Of a stretch of DNA of 64,000 nt, positions 37,934 to 53,995 are shown in pieces; positions within the stretch are counted from its first letter, which is position 1; every line of letters begins with the position of its first letter. This DNA is from an uncultured Poribacteria bacterium. GTDB lineage: Bacteria; Poribacteria; WGA-4E; WGA-3G. The notes beneath the pieces are model-generated. The model did not search any database. It saw only the letters and a program-made list of their open reading frames with translations, and was not told the DNA's origin. The position numbers were made by a program, and so were the translations under genes. The stretch is taken from contig OX638351.1 of NCBI GenBank assembly GCA_951813565.1, positions 2,784,001-2,848,000 of the forward strand, read 5' to 3'.

Positions 37934-38060
37934 AGGTACCCACTACCTAAAGGTAGGGGCTTGTGCTTCCTTGCGACTGCGGTTTTCTCAGAGAGTTGAC
38001 CGTCTTATTGTCGCTCCACTTTAGGCAGCCAAGCCTGCCTGTTTGATATTGATAGCAGCA
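37929..38060 (-). ncRNA. Putative TnpB omega/reRNA scaffold at the element right end
   Basis: Position 3' of tnpB including the right-end hairpin; boundaries inferred from family knowledge. Confidence 0.5.
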
Positions 38061-39133
38061 TTGATGTCTCTGTCGTGGTGTGAACCACATTCGGGACATG
38101 TCCACTGTCTATCTGCGAGAGAGAGTTCTTTGTTATGGTATCCACAATCACTACAAGGTTTTGTTGTTGCTATCCATTGAGAGATTTGCACAAGTTTTTT
38201 GCCGTGCTTCGCACACTTCTGTTCCAATATCTGAAGAAACTGGTAGAAAGAATGGTCAGAAACTTTACGTCCCCATAATCGTTTCATACCGTCAAGGTTC
38301 AGCGTTTCCAAAATGAGTGTGTCAAACTCTACACAAAGTTTTGAGGCAAGTTTCCATTGCCAATCTTCTCTTTGTCGGGCAACTTTTCTGTGTTGCCTTG
38401 CTAAAGCACGGCACGCACGATAATAGTTGTTAGAACCTTTGACTTTACGACTGAGTGCTTTGTTGAGAGATCGCAACGTGTTGAGTGATTGTTTGAAAAA
38501 CTGCGGAGATTGTCCCTTGTTGCCTTCGTCGCTTGTGAGGAACGTTTTGTTTCCGTAATCAAATCCTGCGCTCTTACCCGTCTTGGGTTTGGGTTCGGAA
38601 TCCTCAACATTCTCGCACGAAAAGCATATCCAATAGTCACCGCACCTGTCACGTTTGATCGTGATCGTCTTGATGACACCTTTGATTTCACGGTGTTTGT
38701 GAAAGGAAAACCATGTATCTATACAGTTGATTTTGATACGGTTATCTTCAAGTTTGTAGCCCGCTTGTGTGAAGGTCATGGAGTTGTATTTGTGTCTCGG
38801 TTTGATTTTCGGTCTACCCACTTTACGCGTTGTTTTGCCCGCTTTTCGGTCTTCGATATTCTCAAAGAAAGCGTCTTGAGATTTACCATAACGTAGGACA
38901 ACGTCTTGAACAACTTGACTCGGCAAGTCCGCCCAGTGTGGTTTAGTTGTTTTTTTGAGTTTCGCAACATGTGCCTTCAGACGATACGCAGACAAATTTT
39001 TGCCGAACATGCGATAATACCTACGTGCCAAACGCATGATATGTAGATGGATTTCCCACATATCATCAAGCATATTGCCGAGTTTGATTGTGTTAGATTG
39101 GTGTTGAAGTTTGAACTTGTGAGATTTTCTCAT
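38021..39133 (-). CDS. tnpB: RNA-guided endonuclease TnpB
   Basis: RuvC-I GFDYG, RuvC-II LETL, zinc finger CSDCG...CPECG, RuvC-III RDINAAINI. Confidence 0.93.
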   Translation of the reverse strand: MRKSHKFKLQHQSNTIKLGNMLDDMWEIHLHIMRLARRYYRMFGKNLSAYRLKAHVAKLKKTTKPHWADLPSQVVQDVVLRYGKSQDAFFENIEDRKAGKTTRKVGRPKIKPRHKYNSMTFTQAGYKLEDNRIKINCIDTWFSFHKHREIKGVIKTITIKRDRCGDYWICFSCENVEDSEPKPKTGKSAGFDYGNKTFLTSDEGNKGQSPQFFKQSLNTLRSLNKALSRKVKGSNNYYRACRALARQHRKVARQREDWQWKLASKLCVEFDTLILETLNLDGMKRLWGRKVSDHSFYQFLQILEQKCAKHGKKLVQISQWIATTKPCSDCGYHNKELSLADRQWTCPECGSHHDRDINAAINIKQAGLAA

Positions 39134-39230: not shown

Positions 39231-40320
39231 CAGGACTTACGCAGTCTTGAAGATTATTGAAGGATTTGAGAGTTGATGTCGTAAATAATCGTCCAATAAG
39301 CTATCTTTAAGCTCATAAATTGTTCTACCAACTGCACGGGCAGTGCGTGTCAAACAGACCCATACTTGAAAACAACACGCAATATGATTTCTTTGCGCAC
39401 GCAACTTGCGACATTGACATTTACCAATACCAGTGACTTGTTTGATCTCACGATGAAATTGCTCAATCTTCCAACGCACTTTACATTCTTGGATTGTGGC
39501 ATCCGCATCTGATTGAGATAAATCGTTTGTAGCGATATATACCTTGTGTCCGTTAGAGGACGCTATCCGGAACAACTTCACTTGATGTCCATTTGGAAAC
39601 TTATTGATGTGCACGCGTTTTCCTTGTCGTATTTCTGTTTGGGTCCAACATAAATCTTGGACTTGTTGGTGTTGTTCAACACCATCCGTATCATTGACAA
39701 GACGATTACGCTTGAGAGGCACATAGTAAATCTTGGAAAGTTTTTCAATCGCTTTGATGACTTTCATTGACGCATACCAAGCATCCATGAGCACAGTCCG
39801 AAACGGGAGTTGTTTTTTCAAGTAGACATTGTGCAACATTTCCAGTAAATGGTCTATTTTGGTTTTACCATCATGATCTTTGTCAAAAATACGATAATCA
39901 ATGATCCAATATTCTTGCGTCTTTGGATTGACATAAAGACACGTGACAATACCGATGCCTACAACGACTTTTTTGTCGCTACCACTCCATTGAGAACGAA
40001 GGGCTTCAATCTCTTTGGCATGGAGTTTAGGAAGCACAAAATCATCAAAAACTATGTATCCTTCATCATCATACTCAATGTCATCCTTTACGGATTGCCA
40101 GAGTTCGCTTGAAGAAATGTTTTCATTTCTCAAGAAACGATTGAGTTGATCGTGGCTCCATTTTTCTGTCTGAGCAGCAAAGTAGGTTTGTGTCCAATTC
40201 GTGAAACTTGCTATCAAAAACTGACAATAATCGGAAAATAGGTTTTCCTTCTTTTGAGAGTGGGAAAATGTAATCATAATAGAATAGTATACACCATTTT
40301 ATAAAAATGCGTAAGTCCTG
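39231..40320 (-). mobile_element. IS701-like insertion sequence, 1090 bp
   Basis: 13-bp TIR CAGGACTTACGCA/TGCGTAAGTCCTG; 7-bp TSD AGTATAT at 39224-39230 and 40321-40327. Confidence 0.88.
39237..40277 (-). CDS. DDE transposase (IS701-like)
   Basis: IVFDD, IDYRIF..DGKTK, VLMDAWYA, RWKIEQFHREIKQ. Confidence 0.9.
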   Translation of the reverse strand: MITFSHSQKKENLFSDYCQFLIASFTNWTQTYFAAQTEKWSHDQLNRFLRNENISSSELWQSVKDDIEYDDEGYIVFDDFVLPKLHAKEIEALRSQWSGSDKKVVVGIGIVTCLYVNPKTQEYWIIDYRIFDKDHDGKTKIDHLLEMLHNVYLKKQLPFRTVLMDAWYASMKVIKAIEKLSKIYYVPLKRNRLVNDTDGVEQHQQVQDLCWTQTEIRQGKRVHINKFPNGHQVKLFRIASSNGHKVYIATNDLSQSDADATIQECKVRWKIEQFHREIKQVTGIGKCQCRKLRAQRNHIACCFQVWVCLTRTARAVGRTIYELKDSLLDDYLRHQLSNPSIIFKTA

Positions 40321-43738: not shown

Positions 43739-44755
43739 TTAGGGATGTAACGCTGTTTTAACACCGCGTTGCGCGATAGCGTTATCAAAAGCTTCTAAAC
43801 CTTGTGAAATGGAAAACTGATCGGTTAGCAAAGGTTTGAAATTGATTGCTTCTTGTAGTAGGAGCTGGCGGGATTCTTGAAGGCTTGCTCGGGAAAATGC
43901 CCACGAAGCCATCAGTTTGTGTCCGGTATAGTGAAATTCTTCTAAGTTTATGCGAAGTTCCTCACCTTCCGGCGCAAGACCGAAAAAGTTGATACAACCG
44001 CCTTTGCGTATAACCTGAAAAGCGAGGTTAATCACTGACGTTTTATTTGTCGTAGCGGAGATGACGGTATCAACACCGCCGTGGGTGATTTCATGGAGAT
44101 GTGCAACATTGTCAGGAGAAATATCAAAAGCGGCATCGGCCCCGACAGTTTCTGCGACAGATCTGCGGTAGGGTAGAGGGTCCAGAACGTAGGTTGCTAA
44201 ACCTGCTCGTTTCGTCAATTGGGTGAACATCAACCCGATGGGACCAGCACCGAGGATGGCAACAGTGTTTTGGAAAATGGTTTCTTGCATCGCATTTAGG
44301 CAGCAGCCTAACGGTTCAAGGAAAAGTAGTTCTTCTGGTGGGATGGTGTCTGGCACTCGGATGAGTTTGCCCGTGTCTATGCCGTGTTTCGGCATCCGCA
44401 TGTATTCGGCGTAGCCGCCATCAATGTCGTGTCCGATACCTTCAATCGTATCGCAGTATTTGTCTTTGTCATTTCGGCAATGCACACAACTCCCGCACGA
44501 AAGCATCGGATTTACGGTGACCCGTTCGCCGACTTTTACTTCCGGATGCCGACTCTCAACGATTACACCTGCGAGTTCATGTCCCATCACAACAGGTGGT
44601 GAATAGTCTGATATATCGCCACGGAGCGCAGCAAGGTCAGATGCGCAGATACCGCACAACTCCATCTTGATAAGCACATCCCCGGCATTGAGTGTGGGAA
44701 TTGGTTTGTCTTGTATGCGTAACTGCTGAACTTTTTCAAAAACGATTGCTTTCAT
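43739..44755 (-). CDS. Zinc-dependent (MDR) alcohol/sugar dehydrogenase
   Basis: CGICASD, GHELAG, CGSCVHC...C, GAGPIG; start MKAIVF at ATG44755, 7 nt after the iscB stop. Confidence 0.92.
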   Translation of the reverse strand: MKAIVFEKVQQLRIQDKPIPTLNAGDVLIKMELCGICASDLAALRGDISDYSPPVVMGHELAGVIVESRHPEVKVGERVTVNPMLSCGSCVHCRNDKDKYCDTIEGIGHDIDGGYAEYMRMPKHGIDTGKLIRVPDTIPPEELLFLEPLGCCLNAMQETIFQNTVAILGAGPIGLMFTQLTKRAGLATYVLDPLPYRRSVAETVGADAAFDISPDNVAHLHEITHGGVDTVISATTNKTSVINLAFQVIRKGGCINFFGLAPEGEELRINLEEFHYTGHKLMASWAFSRASLQESRQLLLQEAINFKPLLTDQFSISQGLEAFDNAIAQRGVKTALHP

Positions 44756-44762
44756 ATACGTT

Positions 44763-46319
44763 CTACGCAACCAATGGGCAGTTTACGATGCTATAACTAT
44801 ATCCATCGCGCTTTTGAATTCTTCGGATTTCGGTAATATTTCCAGATTTTCTCGAATCTTTCTCTTCAGGTGCAAAGTATTCTACGCGAAGTTTACGAGG
44901 TTTGCCTACTGCGGTTTTATCAAAACAGTTGATTATCCCTTTCCATTTCCGATCTCGCTTTGTTATCTCAACGTAGTCAAACTTCGCAAAGCCATTTACA
45001 TGCGAAACCTTAGTTGATGGTTTGATGAAACCGGGTGCTTTCATGTCAAATATCTTGCCTACATTGTCGCGTCTACCATATCCTTTAGCTTCAATGATAG
45101 CAACTTGCAGCGACTTAGCTCGTTTCGGAACAATCGCAACAGACGCAGCATCATAATAATGCGTTTTCGGCAATCTGGCAAGATTCCGATGATGTGCTGT
45201 TTTTCCACCAGTGCCACTTATTATTGGGAGCCCTGTTGTTTTGAGTGTCTCAAACAGTTTCCACCGAATAGTGTTGATTGCTGCAGCATCAGAAAGACCC
45301 TTTTCAGATTTTCGGGCTGCTGCTTGGACCTTCTTTGCAAAATCAGTACCAAGCTTTTCTTCCAACTCGGCTCCGTGCAGTTTACCTTTCTTTTCGTTGC
45401 AGTCTTTACATGCCATCGTCAAGTTGCTCGGACGGTTATCTTCACGAACGGCTTTAGGTGCGATGTGTTCTACTTCTAAATGACGTTTGCCTTTTCCACA
45501 ATAAGCGCATTTTCTGCCAGTCAGTTCTAAAAGATATTCGCGTATCTCACGTCCCCATAAAGTTCCTTGTTGATATTCAATGCCATGTATACCAGGATTT
45601 TCCATCAACTGCATATCAAATTTCACCGTCTCAATTGCCAATTGTGTAATCGGGTAAATCTTACATAACCGTCGGGTCCAGGTCTCTAAATTGAAAACAC
45701 GGGACATCAAACTCGGTGCCACCCAACCATTATCGGCGACCCGTTGATGCACAACGCGAATGCGTCGCCAGCGTTTCTTTTGACGCTTGTTCGTTTTGGT
45801 GTCAGGTAAACGCTCCCAACGATACCGCTCGTCTAAAAACATCGCTTTTGACACGCGATTCAAGTCATTTTGAGATTTACTGGAATCCATTCCCTCTGGC
45901 ACTGAAGCACGTTCATATCTCCATCCGTTTTCTGTAAGAATTGGCACTTGACGTTTCCGATTTGCCCACCGAGCAGGACGATACCGTAGATTACGAGTTC
46001 TACGTCCTCTACGAAAGCCCGAACGTTTTTGAAGATTTCTTTTGATTTGCTGCCCACGGTGATGTAATTCCGCAGCATAGACTATATCCCCAGATTCAGA
46101 CACAATGGCGATTCCACTGATGCGTGATCCCGGGTCCCAACTCAACGTATACGGTTTTGTGACAATTTCCGATTCTGGAACTGCTTTCTTAAGAATAATC
46201 GTAAACGGGTATTTTCGCCATATTGCTGCTTCACCGCGTTTCAGTAGACGACGTGCTACAGCAGGATGACAAGGTTCTAAAGGGTTTTTGTCTGTATCAA
46301 TAACTGCTACTTTTGACAT
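44763..46319 (-). CDS. iscB: CRISPR-associated IscB (OMEGA RNA-guided RuvC+HNH nuclease) with REC-position insertion
   Basis: PLMP-like N-terminus (NPLEPCHPAVARRLLK...PFTI), RuvC-I WDPG (D62), bridge helix RRGRRTRNLRYR, RuvC-II IETVKFD (E230), CAYC...EH(285)I...NL..AC..CN HNH, RuvC-III THYYDA. Confidence 0.93.
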   Translation of the reverse strand: MSKVAVIDTDKNPLEPCHPAVARRLLKRGEAAIWRKYPFTIILKKAVPESEIVTKPYTLSWDPGSRISGIAIVSESGDIVYAAELHHRGQQIKRNLQKRSGFRRGRRTRNLRYRPARWANRKRQVPILTENGWRYERASVPEGMDSSKSQNDLNRVSKAMFLDERYRWERLPDTKTNKRQKKRWRRIRVVHQRVADNGWVAPSLMSRVFNLETWTRRLCKIYPITQLAIETVKFDMQLMENPGIHGIEYQQGTLWGREIREYLLELTGRKCAYCGKGKRHLEVEHIAPKAVREDNRPSNLTMACKDCNEKKGKLHGAELEEKLGTDFAKKVQAAARKSEKGLSDAAAINTIRWKLFETLKTTGLPIISGTGGKTAHHRNLARLPKTHYYDAASVAIVPKRAKSLQVAIIEAKGYGRRDNVGKIFDMKAPGFIKPSTKVSHVNGFAKFDYVEITKRDRKWKGIINCFDKTAVGKPRKLRVEYFAPEEKDSRKSGNITEIRRIQKRDGYSYSIVNCPLVA

Positions 46320-46329
46320 TTTTTATCCG

Positions 46330-46580
46330 TGGATGTTGAGATACCCGAAAGCACCTCAACATCCAAAGCTCGCCTTGCGGCGGTAATGTGAGCCTCGTCA
46401 ATGTTATTTCTGCTTTATAACAGGGTTGACAGCGTATTGTAAAGCTGTTTACATTGCCCCGACAGCGCTCCCGGCTGGCTCATGTACCTGGAGGTGTCTA
46501 TATCAGAAATAACGGATTTAATGTTTCCAACCCATAAAGGCTTGACTAGATACCACTTGGGCATGTTTTTTGTTGCAATT
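46330..46580 (-). ncRNA. omegaRNA/HEARO-like scaffold with a 5' tracrRNA-like anti-repeat
   Basis: Minus strand has anti-repeat TTGCAACAAAAAACATGCCCAAGTGGTATC, then HEARO-like motifs (CCGTTATTTCTG...GACACC...TAAACAG...CAGAAATAACATTGACGAGG...CATTACCGCCGCAAGGCG) and a terminal UUCG-capped hairpin. Confidence 0.82.
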
Positions 46581-46673
46581 TTTGCCGTCAACCTCCCAGC
46601 AAAAATGCAAGATTGGAGGTCGACTGCAAACTCTTAAGACTGACGCTTGACGCAGCTTGACTTTAAGTATAGG

Positions 46674-48445
46674 GTTGCAACTCAAACATGCCCAAGCGAT
46701 AACTGCTATCTTCAGCAAGTATCTGACCTTCCTTTTGGGCAAGTTGCAACTCAAACATGCCCAAGCGATAACCTTCAAACGTGTGCGAAAGGCGTTCAGC
46801 ATCTTTTTCGTTGCAACTCAAACATGCCCAAGCGATAACTCTGGTCTGCTGCTTCGTTTATAATGTCCTCAATAGCGTTGCAACTCAAACATGCCCAAGC
46901 GATAACTTATTTAAACGCATATCAAAAATGATAGCACTAAAAGTTGCAACTCAAACATGCCCAAGCGATAACTTGTTCAGCGGATATATCATCACTGGAT
47001 TTGACGCGTTGCAACTCAAACATGCCCAAGCGATAACACTATTCTATGAGACATTTGAGATAAAGCAAAAATTGTTGCAACTCAAACATGCCCAAGCGAT
47101 AACGTTTACCCCTCCGTTTTGCCTCACCAGTGACATCTACCGGTTGCAACTCAAACATGCCCAAGCGATAACTATGTGATGCCGCAATCTCCCAAGATGT
47201 TGGACTTAAGTTGCAACTCAAACATGCCCAAGCGATAACTTTCGATCCTGAAATACCATATGCTTGGGAGCGTGAGTTGCAACTCAAACATGCCCAAGCG
47301 ATAACGCGCGGACCGGCTTTGGTGCGTTCCGCTAATCCGTGATGTTGCAACTCAAACATGCCCAAGCGATAACTTCGGCACATACAACCCTGTAGCACCA
47401 CCTGTCTCGCGTTGCAACTCAAACATGCCCAAGCGATAACACAGAAGGCTTAGACGATTACATGAAACTCAAAAGTCGGTTGCAACTCAAACATGCCCAA
47501 GCGATAACCGAGAAGTAACGTGTGTTATCATTTTCATCTTTCCAGTTGCAACTCAAACATGCCCAAGCGATAACATGTAAAACACCCTTGACTGTCTCAG
47601 GCGTAACCAAGTTGCAACTCAAACATGCCCAAGCGATAACGAAGTACCAAGACCACGCTGCGCAAGATTGCCAGCAAAACGTTGCAACTCAAACATGCCC
47701 AAGCGATAACTTCGGCTGGGGTGATGAAGTATATCTTCAAGGAGTTAGTTGCAACTCAAACATGCCCAAGCGATAACATGGGCAATCGCAGTATCATCAA
47801 AACACTTGAGTTTGTTGCAACTCAAACATGCCCAAGCGATAACTCAGCTGTCCTTTTTCGTTTGCGATGTTGATGCCAAGTTGCAACTCAAACATGCCCA
47901 AGCGATAACGAAAATCGGGGATATAGTCGTAGCGCAAACAGAAGCGTTGCAACTCAAACATGCCCAAGCGATAACTGAGATTCTTTCTTGGGCAAATGAT
48001 GATAAAAATTCGGTTGCAACTCAAACATGCCCAAGCGATAACTCTACGGAGTCTGCACCTATAAATTGTGCGTAACGGTTGCAACTCAAACATGCCCAAG
48101 CGATAACAAAGATCGTCACCACAGGATTTAACAGCAAGGTCAAGGTTGCAACTCAAACATGCCCAAGCGATAACGTATTGGATTGCTCACGGGATTGTCC
48201 GATGCAACGCAGGTTGCAACTCAAACATGCCCAAGCGATAACCACCTCTGCTTTCACTGTAATTATTTTCTGTTTGGTGCGTTGCAACTCAAACATGCCC
48301 AAGCGATAACTCAAAACTTCGTTTAGCGACTTCTTTACTTCAACGCTATGTTGCAACTCAAACATGCCCAAGCGATAACCTATGAAAGCCATCGTTTTGA
48401 AAAAATCCATCAAGTTGCAACGCCAGCACGCTTAAGTGATATAAC
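46674..48445 (-). CRISPR. CRISPR array: 26 identical 30-bp repeats + 1 degenerate repeat, 26 spacers of 34-40 bp
   Basis: Repeat (+) GTTGCAACTCAAACATGCCCAAGCGATAAC from 46674 to 48379; degenerate copy GTTGCAACGCCAGCACGCTTAAGTGATATAAC at 48414-48445; minus orientation inferred from G-U pairing with the anti-repeat. Confidence 0.98.
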
Positions 48446-49478: not shown

Positions 49479-50286
49479 TATATGTTTGGCTCCTTCTGTG
49501 CGTGGGGTGTTACCCCGATTTCAAATTTTATGAATATCTTATTATAGCATAGATGCGGGGGTGTGTCAAAAATTAAATTGAACAAGGCAGAGGCATTCAA
49601 TTTTCGTCTAATTATCCGTTTTAGTTGAAAAGTTGGGACCTAAAAATCGTTCCGAGATGCACGAATTGATTGTATTTTTCTTCTCATTTTATTGGAATCA
49701 TCTCCTTAAAAAGTTACCATACGGTAACTTTTTTCATACCGTGGTAACTTTTTGAAATTCTCTATAAACTCAGTATATGTAAGGGTTTATAGACATTTTA
49801 TTTAAATTTTATATTTTTCATCTGCGTTGATGAACACAGGTTTCCTTTTGCTGGAGATATTTTATTTTCCTAAGTTTTGCGTTGTCGTCTTGGCATTAGA
49901 GAGTTACTTTCGATTTTCGGTGTGTTTGGGGATCGGTTTTCTCTTTTCATACTGATATTATACCAAGTTCTATGGGGTGATCAGAAGTTTTCGTGGTGTT
50001 AAGAACAATAGATATCCAATAGATTCACAATAAGTTTGCAGGAAAAGTTGGGGTTGATACGTTCTTTTTGCATCTTGGATGAGTGTGTTTTTTGTTGTCA
50101 GCATGGCGGTTGACGCGATTTTTTGCAGTTTTTGTAAAGGAAGAAATTATTGGAGAATTGAATGGCTTTGTGGAAAAGGTCTTAAAATTGACAAACGCTT
50201 AGAGATAGTCTAAACTATTACCACTTTTTAACACGCTTTTACCATAAAGACATATCTTCGGATTAAGTAGTAGATAGGAGGCAACG

Positions 50287-52436: not shown

Positions 52437-52484
52437 TTCCTTTTGTTATTTTAGTTTTATAGTTGTAGAGGGATTATTGAATAA

Positions 52485-53892
52485 CGCAATAAGTAGTTTT
52501 GGACTTTCAAAAAGCCCTTAAGCGTTATGGAAATTTATACTTAATAGGGTATGAGAATTCGGAAAAGCACTAAACGGCGAAGACTAATTTCTAACTCTAA
52601 TCTGCGAGAACTTCTGCCCCTCCACCTCACATCGGTATAAAAGTTGAGCGCGCTTGATAGATACTTTGCAACGGCAGACAATTCTTCTAATCGTTTTGCC
52701 GTTGTGATATGAGTGTGGTCCAGCTTGTCAAGACCTTATTCTCTAAGTTCTTCTGCCATCGTTGAGTGAGTCTTCATCTCATACTCTCATTGACAAACTT
52801 ATCAAAAATGCTCTCAATGTTCCTATAGTTGTATTTATAGCACGCCTCTGCGACATATAGGGGCGTGTATTCAGTCCAATAGTGGTGATGACTTCCATAC
52901 CAAGCACGTTTGAGAAGTGACCAGAAGCCTTCAATCGTATTGGTATGGACATCACCGTCAACAAATTGTTCTTGATGATCAATGATATGGTGCTTCATCT
53001 CTTTACCGAGTGTGAGATAAGCCTTATACTCATCAGTCATCAACTGCGATTTATCTACTTTAACAACTTCGCGAATAAAATTTAAGATAGTCCGTCCCGT
53101 CAAATCTTTTGCGAGTCTTGCCACAACTTTCCCACCGCGTTCAATCGCTCCGATGATAGCATCTTTATCAGTGCCACGCCCACGCTTAGCAGGATCCCTG
53201 TCCTCTTTTTTGTTCGCTTTGCGAGGTTTACCCCCGACATAAGTTTCGTCAGCCTCTATGATACCTTGTAAGAGGATATTATCTTTAGCCATTTCAGCAC
53301 GGATGCATGTTCCCATACGCCACGCAGTCTTTTGATTCAAGTCCAAATCTCTTGCCAACTGATGACTTGAAAGACTCTTTTTAGCATTCGTCATCAACGA
53401 GATAGCCAAAAACCACTTCTGAAGTGCTATCTTTGTCCCGTGAAACACCGTGCCACAAGTAACCTTGAAAGTAGCAGTGCAATCGTGGCATTGCCAGCGC
53501 CCGATGCGTCCCAATTCCGTTTCTGTTCGTCTTGCAACGTTTGGGCAATCACAATGTGGACACTTCGGTTTACCCTTCCACCGAATACTCTCTAAATGTT
53601 CAATACAACTCTCTTGATCAGGGAATCGTTCCATCACTTTCAACAAATCCATCAGAAAACTCCTTTTTAGGAGTTGCTTTTTCTGACAGGTTTCTGATAC
53701 AATAATTAGATAAGACAGAATGCCAGAAAAGCAACTCGCTTTTTTGTGTTCAATTAGGGGGTTAGCAGCCCTCTAATTTCTTATCTAAATTGTATCATAT
53801 TTTCACAATTAAAACAAGCGAAAAATGTAGTCTACACAAGGATTTAGAGCGATTTTTAAAATTTTGTTGAAAGTCCAAAACTACTTATTGCG
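52485..53892 (-). mobile_element. IS1595-family insertion sequence, 1408 bp
   Basis: Perfect 26-bp TIR CGCAATAAGTAGTTTTGGACTTTCAA; 8-bp TSD TTGAATAA at 52477-52484 and 53893-53900. Confidence 0.92.
52774..53652 (-). CDS. IS1595-family transposase
   Basis: N-terminal zinc ribbon CPHC...CHDC, EADETYVGG, TDEY, HTNTIEGFWSLLKR. Confidence 0.93.
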   Translation of the reverse strand: MDLLKVMERFPDQESCIEHLESIRWKGKPKCPHCDCPNVARRTETELGRIGRWQCHDCTATFKVTCGTVFHGTKIALQKWFLAISLMTNAKKSLSSHQLARDLDLNQKTAWRMGTCIRAEMAKDNILLQGIIEADETYVGGKPRKANKKEDRDPAKRGRGTDKDAIIGAIERGGKVVARLAKDLTGRTILNFIREVVKVDKSQLMTDEYKAYLTLGKEMKHHIIDHQEQFVDGDVHTNTIEGFWSLLKRAWYGSHHHYWTEYTPLYVAEACYKYNYRNIESIFDKFVNESMR

Positions 53893-53995
53893 TTGAATAA
53901 TGTTACTGCAAAGAGCGTACAGACCCCTCAAACTGTTTCTCATTGCGATGATTATAGCTCTAAAATTAAGAGCGTTTTGCTATATTCCAATATCG

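Follow-up and report, generated by a model that had tools for sequence, protein, structure and literature searches.

A CRISPR-associated IscB locus of Poribacteria with a type I-B-like leader in the loop between its repeat and anti-repeat

The window, a stretch of 64,000 nucleotides from an uncultured Poribacteria bacterium, contains a CRISPR-associated IscB locus in which the last repeat of the array and an anti-repeat at the edge of the omegaRNA core enclose a loop that resembles the leader of the host's type I-B array. We propose, with a probability of about 0.65 and on the basis of sequence comparisons and predicted folds, that repeat and anti-repeat form the guide-adaptor duplex of the omegaRNA, that the type I-B leader in the loop directs the insertion of spacers in trans, and that the array would be read in the direction opposite to that of a type I-B array, without RNase III. 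The elements of the locus are as follows.

44763..46319, minus strand: iscB, 518 aa, with a PLMP-type N-terminus and intact RuvC I-III and HNH motifs
46320..46548, minus strand: omegaRNA core, with nexus/central stems and 3' hairpins (HEARO match, fold, conservation in relatives)
46549..46579, minus strand: anti-repeat, 31 nt, predicted 3' arm of the guide-adaptor duplex (co-folding, covariation)
46580..46673, no strand assigned: 94-nt loop, a promoter-less type I-B-like leader piece (78% over 64 nt, E 1.6e-6)
46587..46624, no strand assigned: leader inverted-repeat motif, 38 bp, starting 50 nt from the proximal repeat
46674..48379, minus strand: CRISPR array with 26 identical 30-nt repeats and 35-40-nt spacers, predicted to be read toward iscB and to grow at 46674
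48414..48445, minus strand: degenerate terminal repeat, at the trailer end

The product of iscB scores as an IscB (356.6 bits against the NCBIfam guided_IscB model, for a cut-off of 175). With 518 aa and a short insertion after the bridge helix (window positions 45732-45950), it is not an effector of Cas9 size with a REC lobe. Across the clade this insertion ranges from about 15 to about 170 aa (L056-L060). The gene is present as a single copy in the genome, Y1 transposases being found elsewhere in it, and the catalytic motifs are intact in all 16 array-linked relatives. The close relatives belong to Candidatus Poribacteria, where the protein search was positive in 14 of 151 genomes of the phylum, and the 15 loci that share the layout form one branch together with L065 (FastTree support 1.0; 16 of 41 proteins, midpoint root). 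The order repeat, loop, anti-repeat and core is common to these 15 loci, with 4-28 repeats in eleven of them and 1-4 in the other four; the locus counts exclude L016, which is redundant, and the 15-locus alignment excludes L065, which has a different repeat and no leader. A crude array finder flagged none of the 77 homolog loci outside Poribacteria, L097 with two copies being doubtful; this negative result is weak, since the finder also missed the short arrays of L061-L064.

Several neighbouring observations concern the same branch and its genomes. In G142, L065 combines a same-branch IscB with another repeat, a short hairpin to the anti-repeat and no leader motif, and it adjoins a second array with another 37-nt repeat. 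Two CRISPR-IscB loci with differing repeats, L159 and L160, are located about 22 kb apart on one contig of G164, and in L160 the leader stem is extended and the RNA core strongly diverged. In G000, a type I-B locus at C1:1.20-1.22 Mb has a type III-A module embedded in it, and a second locus, at C1:3.99-4.01 Mb, combines a 54-repeat array with a cas1 of its own. Elsewhere in the window, judging by eye, we take 38021-39133 and 39237-40277 to be a TnpB-like and a transposase-like ORF, and 52483-53894 to be a transposase between 31-nt inverted repeats.

The initial annotation had described a pairing of about 26 of 30 nt between the repeat and the minus strand beside it, with an 18-bp lower stem including two G-U wobbles, a small internal loop and a 7-bp upper stem. 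Co-folding reproduces this structure: at -38.2 kcal/mol, the minus-strand repeat and anti-repeat form a lower stem of 18 bp over repeat positions 3-20, in which 5 and 7 are G·U pairs, then a 2x3 internal loop, and an upper stem of 7 bp over positions 23-29. This gives 25 bp, or 26 when the terminal G1-C pair is counted. The plus/plus pairing reaches -31.7 kcal/mol and that of the plus-strand repeat with the minus-strand anti-repeat -9.3 kcal/mol, while 19,995 random genomic 31-mers gave a mean of -11.8 (sd 3.4) and a best value of -27.2 kcal/mol. The longest exact run in the duplex is 13 nt, and five such runs occur genome-wide; what makes the pairing significant is the duplex as a whole, together with its position and covariation.

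Concerning the position, the Infernal search with the HEARO model suggested by the initial annotation gave a match to RF02033 on the minus strand at 46383-46624 (56 bits, E 1.1e-10), but under the gathering score of 83, and an Rfam scan at the gathering threshold returned no match. The fold z-score of 46330-46720 is -6.8. Aligned to HEARO, the anti-repeat has its 3' end at the position of the 3' arm of the first helix, directly before the core, and at this same position the plain omegaRNAs of the relatives L068-L070, L001 and L009 form a closed hairpin. This guide-adaptor hairpin is described as the counterpart of the repeat:anti-repeat duplex of Cas9 in the accessible part of Kato 2022 (PMC9640706). 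The anti-repeat had been placed at the 5' end of the omegaRNA; it is better described as the 3' arm of the guide-adaptor duplex, and would only putatively be the 5' end of a real RNA.

Over the 15 loci, 88.9% of the structure cells were paired against 82.7% after shuffling, none of 500 shuffles being as high, and controls with slid alignments gave 28-46%. Changes on both sides were observed in 7 of the 13 lower-stem pairs, and positions 3-7 of the lower stem were paired in 74 of 75 cells, with compensatory changes. Cognate arms paired at 4.9 of 5 positions and non-cognate arms at 3.4 of 5, a difference found in 8 of 40,320 permutations of loci that are kin and not independent. These covariation figures are not probabilities, because the structure was taken from one member and the loci are related. 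The proposal that the guide-adaptor hairpin has split into repeat and anti-repeat agrees with both the covariation and the HEARO position, and the two elements are likely the two arms of this hairpin. The repeat pattern was found in 10 of 176 genomes of the phylum, each time in an array adjoining iscB, and was not found in the viral contigs searched.

The repeat and the anti-repeat also vary in other ways. In L054, L055, L066 and L159, a two-hairpin insertion of about 55 nt splits the anti-repeat distally and leads to a multi-way junction in the duplex. The middle part of the terminal repeat at 48414-48445 is closer to the repeat of L062, a one-repeat locus, than to the current repeat, which suggests a turnover of repeats from the leader end. 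Near-perfect single copies of the window repeat are present in L162 (~8061), L163 (~4515) and L141 (~1502), with no iscB in the stretches fetched; they are possibly ectopic integrations or remnants.

In all 11 loci compared, binding of the minus-strand repeat (-18.7 to -34.6 kcal/mol) was stronger than that of the other strand (-5.4 to -12.0 kcal/mol). The wobbles, said to work for minus-strand RNAs only, point the same way when the loci are taken together, with 28 G·U against 6 A·C pairs on the iscB strand, but they discriminate weakly in the window locus alone, where the difference is 6.5 kcal/mol. Since the omegaRNA must lie on the iscB strand and can be bound by the minus-strand repeat alone, the RNA of the array is likely of the iscB (minus) strand. 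Sigma70-like sites of at least 9/12 directed toward iscB are found at the far end of the array in 6 of 11 loci (two at 11/12 and four at 9/12, the background for at least 10/12 being 3.5%). The far end of the window array has no such site; the array comes after the stop codon of a gene on the minus strand that has a 12/12 site upstream, from which read-through into the array is likely.

49541..49569, minus strand: sigma70-like site, 12/12, upstream of the preceding gene, putative source of read-through

The loop that separates the last repeat from the anti-repeat matches the leader of the genome's 48-repeat type I-B array, which adjoins cas2, cas1b, cas4, cas3, cas5b, cas7 and cas6. Genome-wide, the 38-bp motif has two matches only, in the IscB loop and in this I-B leader, and it is absent from the array next to the second cas1. 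In L066 the motif is of the variant type found in the I-B leaders of that genome and its family. The motif also folds as an RNA hairpin. A sigma70-like site of 12/12 is present in the I-B leader and none in the IscB loop. The distance from the repeat to the start of the motif is 50 nt in 13 of the 15 IscB loci, against 79-93 nt in I-B leaders, a difference with which the motif may or may not still recruit Cas1-Cas2. In L061-L064, with one to four repeats, the leader is already in the loop. Degenerate repeats, where present, are at the far end of the array, which indicates that the array grows at the omegaRNA end. The array is thus likely to have two orientations, being read toward iscB while its leader and its growing end are iscB-proximal. 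The initial annotation, which considered the orientation fixed by the anti-repeat, was likely right about the minus-strand reading and missed the opposite direction of growth.

The spacers themselves also resemble those of the type I-B arrays. Their length is 36.7±1.5 nt (n=143) in IscB arrays and 36.6±1.5 nt (n=687) in I-B arrays (KS p=0.54), whereas the comparison of IscB spacers with the third array gives p=0.004. In G032, one IscB-array spacer is also an I-B spacer (36/37, same ends, same strand relative to the leader), and a second I-B spacer overlaps the shared one on the same strand; this is the only shared spacer among about 145 IscB spacers compared with 687 I-B spacers, so that the I-B-like polarity of IscB arrays is deduced from one shared spacer and one overlap. 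A cas1b of the Hmari/Tneap type (TIGR03641) was over the cut-off in 7 of 10 hosts, and cas1b, cas2, cas4 and cas6 are present in the window's genome, with cas1 matches more than 1 Mb from the iscB locus. The remaining 3 of 10 hosts, with arrays of 4-9 repeats, have a partial, another or no cas1. Taken together, the leader motif, the degeneracy at the far end, the spacer lengths and the shared spacer suggest that the host Cas1b-Cas2-Cas4 likely adds the spacers.

Under this proposal, the host adaptation complex would read the loop as a leader and duplicate the adjacent 30 bp, which correspond to the 5' arm of the hairpin. Because it is this arm that gets duplicated, each new spacer would be placed directly 5' of a repeat-loop-anti-repeat-core unit and give a natural single guide. 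The guides would then work from one transcript by pairing in cis, and older spacers could be released by generic trimming or by the host Cas6. A preference of the anti-repeat for the newest, nearest repeat was considered and finds no thermodynamic support, since in the equilibrium fold of a transcript with four repeats the anti-repeat pairs with the farthest one; any repeat may therefore pair in cis.

The same features could have another origin, in which an IscB element took over an existing class 1 array together with its leader, the arrays being static or growing by recombination, the anti-repeat being an inverted copy of the repeat and the leader motif a relic kept as an RNA structure. The class 1-like repeat ends and spacer lengths, the persistence of arrays in hosts without cas1b and the folding of the motif as an RNA hairpin are all in agreement with such a capture, and the insertion of a transposon near an existing array is published for TnpB, according to the part of PMC10691335 consulted. 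However, this repeat family occurs only beside iscB, the loci have up to 26-28 repeats of which the proximal ones are identical, most loci have no spacers in common, one spacer is shared with an I-B array whose repeat is different, and the distance of the motif is fixed in 13 of 15 loci; we consequently regard a capture as unlikely. That the array would instead serve the type I-B Cascade in the leader sense, iscB being a bystander, is hardly credible: the leader motif and the sense of the PAM are common to type I-B, but the IscB leaders have no I-B promoter, the anti-repeat covaries with the repeat, and in the relatives already published IscB works in the opposite sense, as far as the accessible text of PMC13180657 describes them. 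Trans insertion by the host's type I-B adaptation proteins is the reading that we retain for the origin of the spacers.

The maturation of the guides raises a second set of alternatives. The duplex had been claimed as a possible RNase III substrate, and the genomic data do not support this. No RNase III domain was found in the window's genome, a single contig that is 95% complete. The TIGR02191 cut-off was passed by 12 of 176 genomes of the phylum, each of them one of the 17 that do not belong to the host's order, and by none of the 159 genomes of this order, which gave at most weak matches, of 38.5 bits or less, to the C-terminal portion of the model; among control genomes, 8 of 14 passed. 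From these searches, RNase III appears to have been lost from the whole order, and a step depending on it is unlikely because the gene was found neither in the host nor, over the cut-off, in its order. Many genomes retain a short protein that weakly matches the C-terminal part of the RNase III model. A two-RNA system as in Cas9, with RNase III cutting the repeat:anti-repeat duplex into mature crRNAs, could draw on the crRNA:tracrRNA-like geometry, on the equation of the guide-adaptor hairpin with the crRNA:tracrRNA duplex in the accessible part of Kato 2022 (PMC9640706), and on a weak 9/12 promoter-like site over the last repeat and the loop, which could give a separate tracr-like RNA. Such a system is nevertheless very improbable in hosts whose order has no genome over the cut-off against 12 of 17 outside it, and the anti-repeat is itself split by the two-hairpin insertion in four loci. 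Maturation by the host Cas6 is also on the unlikely side, although less markedly. Cas6 cuts the repeat 8 nt from its 3' end; crRNAs made in this way would dock via the lower stem, while the 8-nt handle would close the leader loop via the upper stem. This scheme is compatible with acquisition in trans and differs in the processing only. A cas6 is present in the genome, the repeats terminate with GTTGCAAC or GTTGAAAC, as in class 1 handles, and in 5 of 15 loci, including the window, the internal loop is at repeat positions 20/21-22 and the upper stem at 23-30. In the other 10 loci, however, the internal loop is elsewhere or absent, the repeat is identical to the I-B repeat at only 13 of 30 positions (hand count), and it forms no clear hairpin (-1.7 kcal/mol).

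If spacers are taken up in the I-B sense and read in the other, the flanking motif should change sides. The 5' flank of I-B protospacers was deduced five times, from one phage match and four spacer overlaps, as TCA, TCA, CCA, TCT and CCG, after removal of matches to insertion-sequence ends with 5-7 mismatches; these flanks are in line with the YCN/CCN PAM given for C. difficile type I-B in the accessible part of PMC8406132. Since the spacer is read from the opposite strand, a 5' YCN/CCN PAM at acquisition would become a 3' NGR/NGG TAM. A TAM of NGG has been measured for PbaIscB-3 and PbaIscB-4, which are members of the clade distinct from the window protein, according to the available part of PMC13180657. 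Many acquired spacers could be unusable, because 3 of the 5 I-B flanks are TCN and would give NGA instead of NGG.

One spacer of the window array has a true phage protospacer.

46907..46942, minus strand: spacer 4, identical over 36/36 nt to two related phage contigs

Its 3' flank in the guide sense is TGG in one phage and TGC in the other, TGC being also found in run X1, and its 5' flank in the leader sense is CCA and GCA, respectively, so that one of the two phage alleles carries a non-matching GCA flank. An escape of the phage by PAM mutation was considered for this CCA/GCA difference and set aside as suggestive at most, the difference corresponding to a Gly/Ala change between phages that are 7-10% diverged. 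The phage contig of about 67 kb in G089:C3 (L161, L164-L167) encodes a terminase, a major head protein and a 4113-aa ORF, and is targeted by an IscB spacer as well as by one of type I-B. No protospacers were found among annotated phages or in the own genome, none for two spacers in viral contigs, none in 20 further contig pieces, and none for the arrays of L055 and L159 in 176 genomes. Spacer 10 of the window has a 19-nt exact match at about 1834-1852 of L055, in a gene downstream of iscB in another host; this gene is presumably phage-like.

The far end of the array concerns the insertion of the element itself.

48380..48413, minus strand: oldest spacer, running antisense to the beginning of the gene directly downstream of iscB, that is, to the insertion junction
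44722..44757, plus strand: the genome's own copy of the sequence targeted by the oldest spacer, mismatched and with an ACG (non-NGG) flank

In genomes of the same genus, the gene downstream of iscB adjoins the upstream gene, and a contig of run X4 gives the empty allele, in which 44756 is joined to 48451, the cassette replacing about 79 nt of intergenic DNA. Among eight relatives with an empty site, one has a perfect 16-nt seed flanked by AGG (CCT in the leader sense), one has AGG with two mismatches and six have no NGG; in this small sample the flanks are consistent with an NGG requirement. An oldest spacer directed at the junction of its own insertion is homing-like. Targeting of the junction as a trait of the family was rejected, as it is seen in 1 of 11 loci only.

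Several steps of this proposal bear on wider questions. For the origin of Cas9, it is an open question how a transposon omegaRNA gained a growing array, a tracrRNA-like anti-repeat and a 3' motif that suits the acquired spacers; equally open is the supply of spacers to effectors without cas1 and cas2, which the locus addresses. The clade provides a testable mechanism, in which a borrowed I-B leader lies in the guide hairpin and the reverse reading mirrors the PAM into the TAM, and it offers a natural series from 1 to 28 repeats as well as a repeat:anti-repeat system in hosts without detected RNase III. Tentatively, and with odds that we place well below even, IscB may have become adaptive in one step, when a fragment of a host type I-B leader was caught in the loop, the array being then built backwards by the host Cas1-Cas2-Cas4 and an NGG TAM selected as the mirror of CCN, without RNase III or cas genes of its own; the loci with one to four repeats would be early stages. 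If this were true, other CasIscBs may owe their 3'-G-rich TAMs to the same route, and Cas9 its repeat, tracrRNA and NGG PAM. Among the CasIscB TAMs listed in the available part of PMC13180657, 6 of 11 have G at position 3.

With its array directly upstream of the omegaRNA and a repeat:anti-repeat duplex in place of the guide-adaptor hairpin, the locus is a CasIscB. The anti-repeat and its crRNA:tracrRNA-like reading, the geometry of which holds here, are already known for CRISPR-associated IscB, since the scaffolds of Kannan 2025 and Zhang 2025 have the same arrangement, and in the parts of the literature consulted arrays are reported to have joined IscB several times and may derive from the omegaRNA (PMC8730458, PMC9755519, PMC10734277, PMC10734217, PMC10691335, PMC11610941). 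What appears to be new is the borrowed I-B leader in the omegaRNA loop, which likely feeds the array. The literature searched, which included little of the subscription literature, contains in its accessible text no statement of a type I leader in a hairpin loop feeding arrays, nor of a TAM mirroring a type I PAM, which Altae-Tran et al. 2021 may already treat.

The closest known systems are PbaIscB-3 and -4 of Candidatus Poribacteria (Kannan 2025, PMC13180657), which, in the accessible part of that paper, have the same repeat family, motif-bearing loop, anti-repeat, core and orientation, with the clade motifs of the protein recognised by eye and a TAM of NGG in vitro. These relatives are presented there as tool candidates, and the accessible text does not mention the I-B leader, the source of the spacers, the mirroring of the PAM or the absence of RNase III; the window protein is not among the three rows that match the N-terminal motif. 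PbaIscB-2, the same protein as one NGG-TAM relative, is given in the same part of PMC13180657 with a scaffold that begins at the anti-repeat end and with no TAM listed. In DelIscB and CasIscB-1 to -3 (Zhang 2025, PMC12660989, accessible part), repeat and anti-repeat are likewise connected by a loop, of about 100 nt, for which GAAA can be substituted, and the DelIscB RNA is compared to crRNA:tracrRNA with its processing left open; DelIscB differs by belonging to another IscB branch, with another repeat, a TAM of NAC and 457 aa, and its loop is not tied to a leader in that text. IscB-1 of Ktedonobacter racemifer (Altae-Tran et al. 2021), as described in the part of PMC11610941 consulted, is like the window locus in having an array and an ncRNA upstream, with one expressed region of 329 bp and a 3' TAM, but this TAM is ATAAA and the locus is short, whereas the window has 26 repeats and spacers of I-B length.

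Type II Cas9 systems, including II-D, share with the window locus the order spacer, repeat:anti-repeat and nexus, a 3' motif and the RuvC and HNH domains. The window system differs from them by its full omegaRNA core, a host in which no RNase III was found, the cas1 matches more than 1 Mb away, the 30-nt repeats with variable spacers of 35-40 nt and an anti-repeat contiguous with the array. The type I-B arrays of the same hosts resemble it by the leader inverted repeat, the 30-nt repeat, the spacer lengths and one common spacer; in contrast to them, the leader promoter is missing from the IscB array, the motif is nearer to the repeat, the predicted reading is opposite and the effector is class 2-like.
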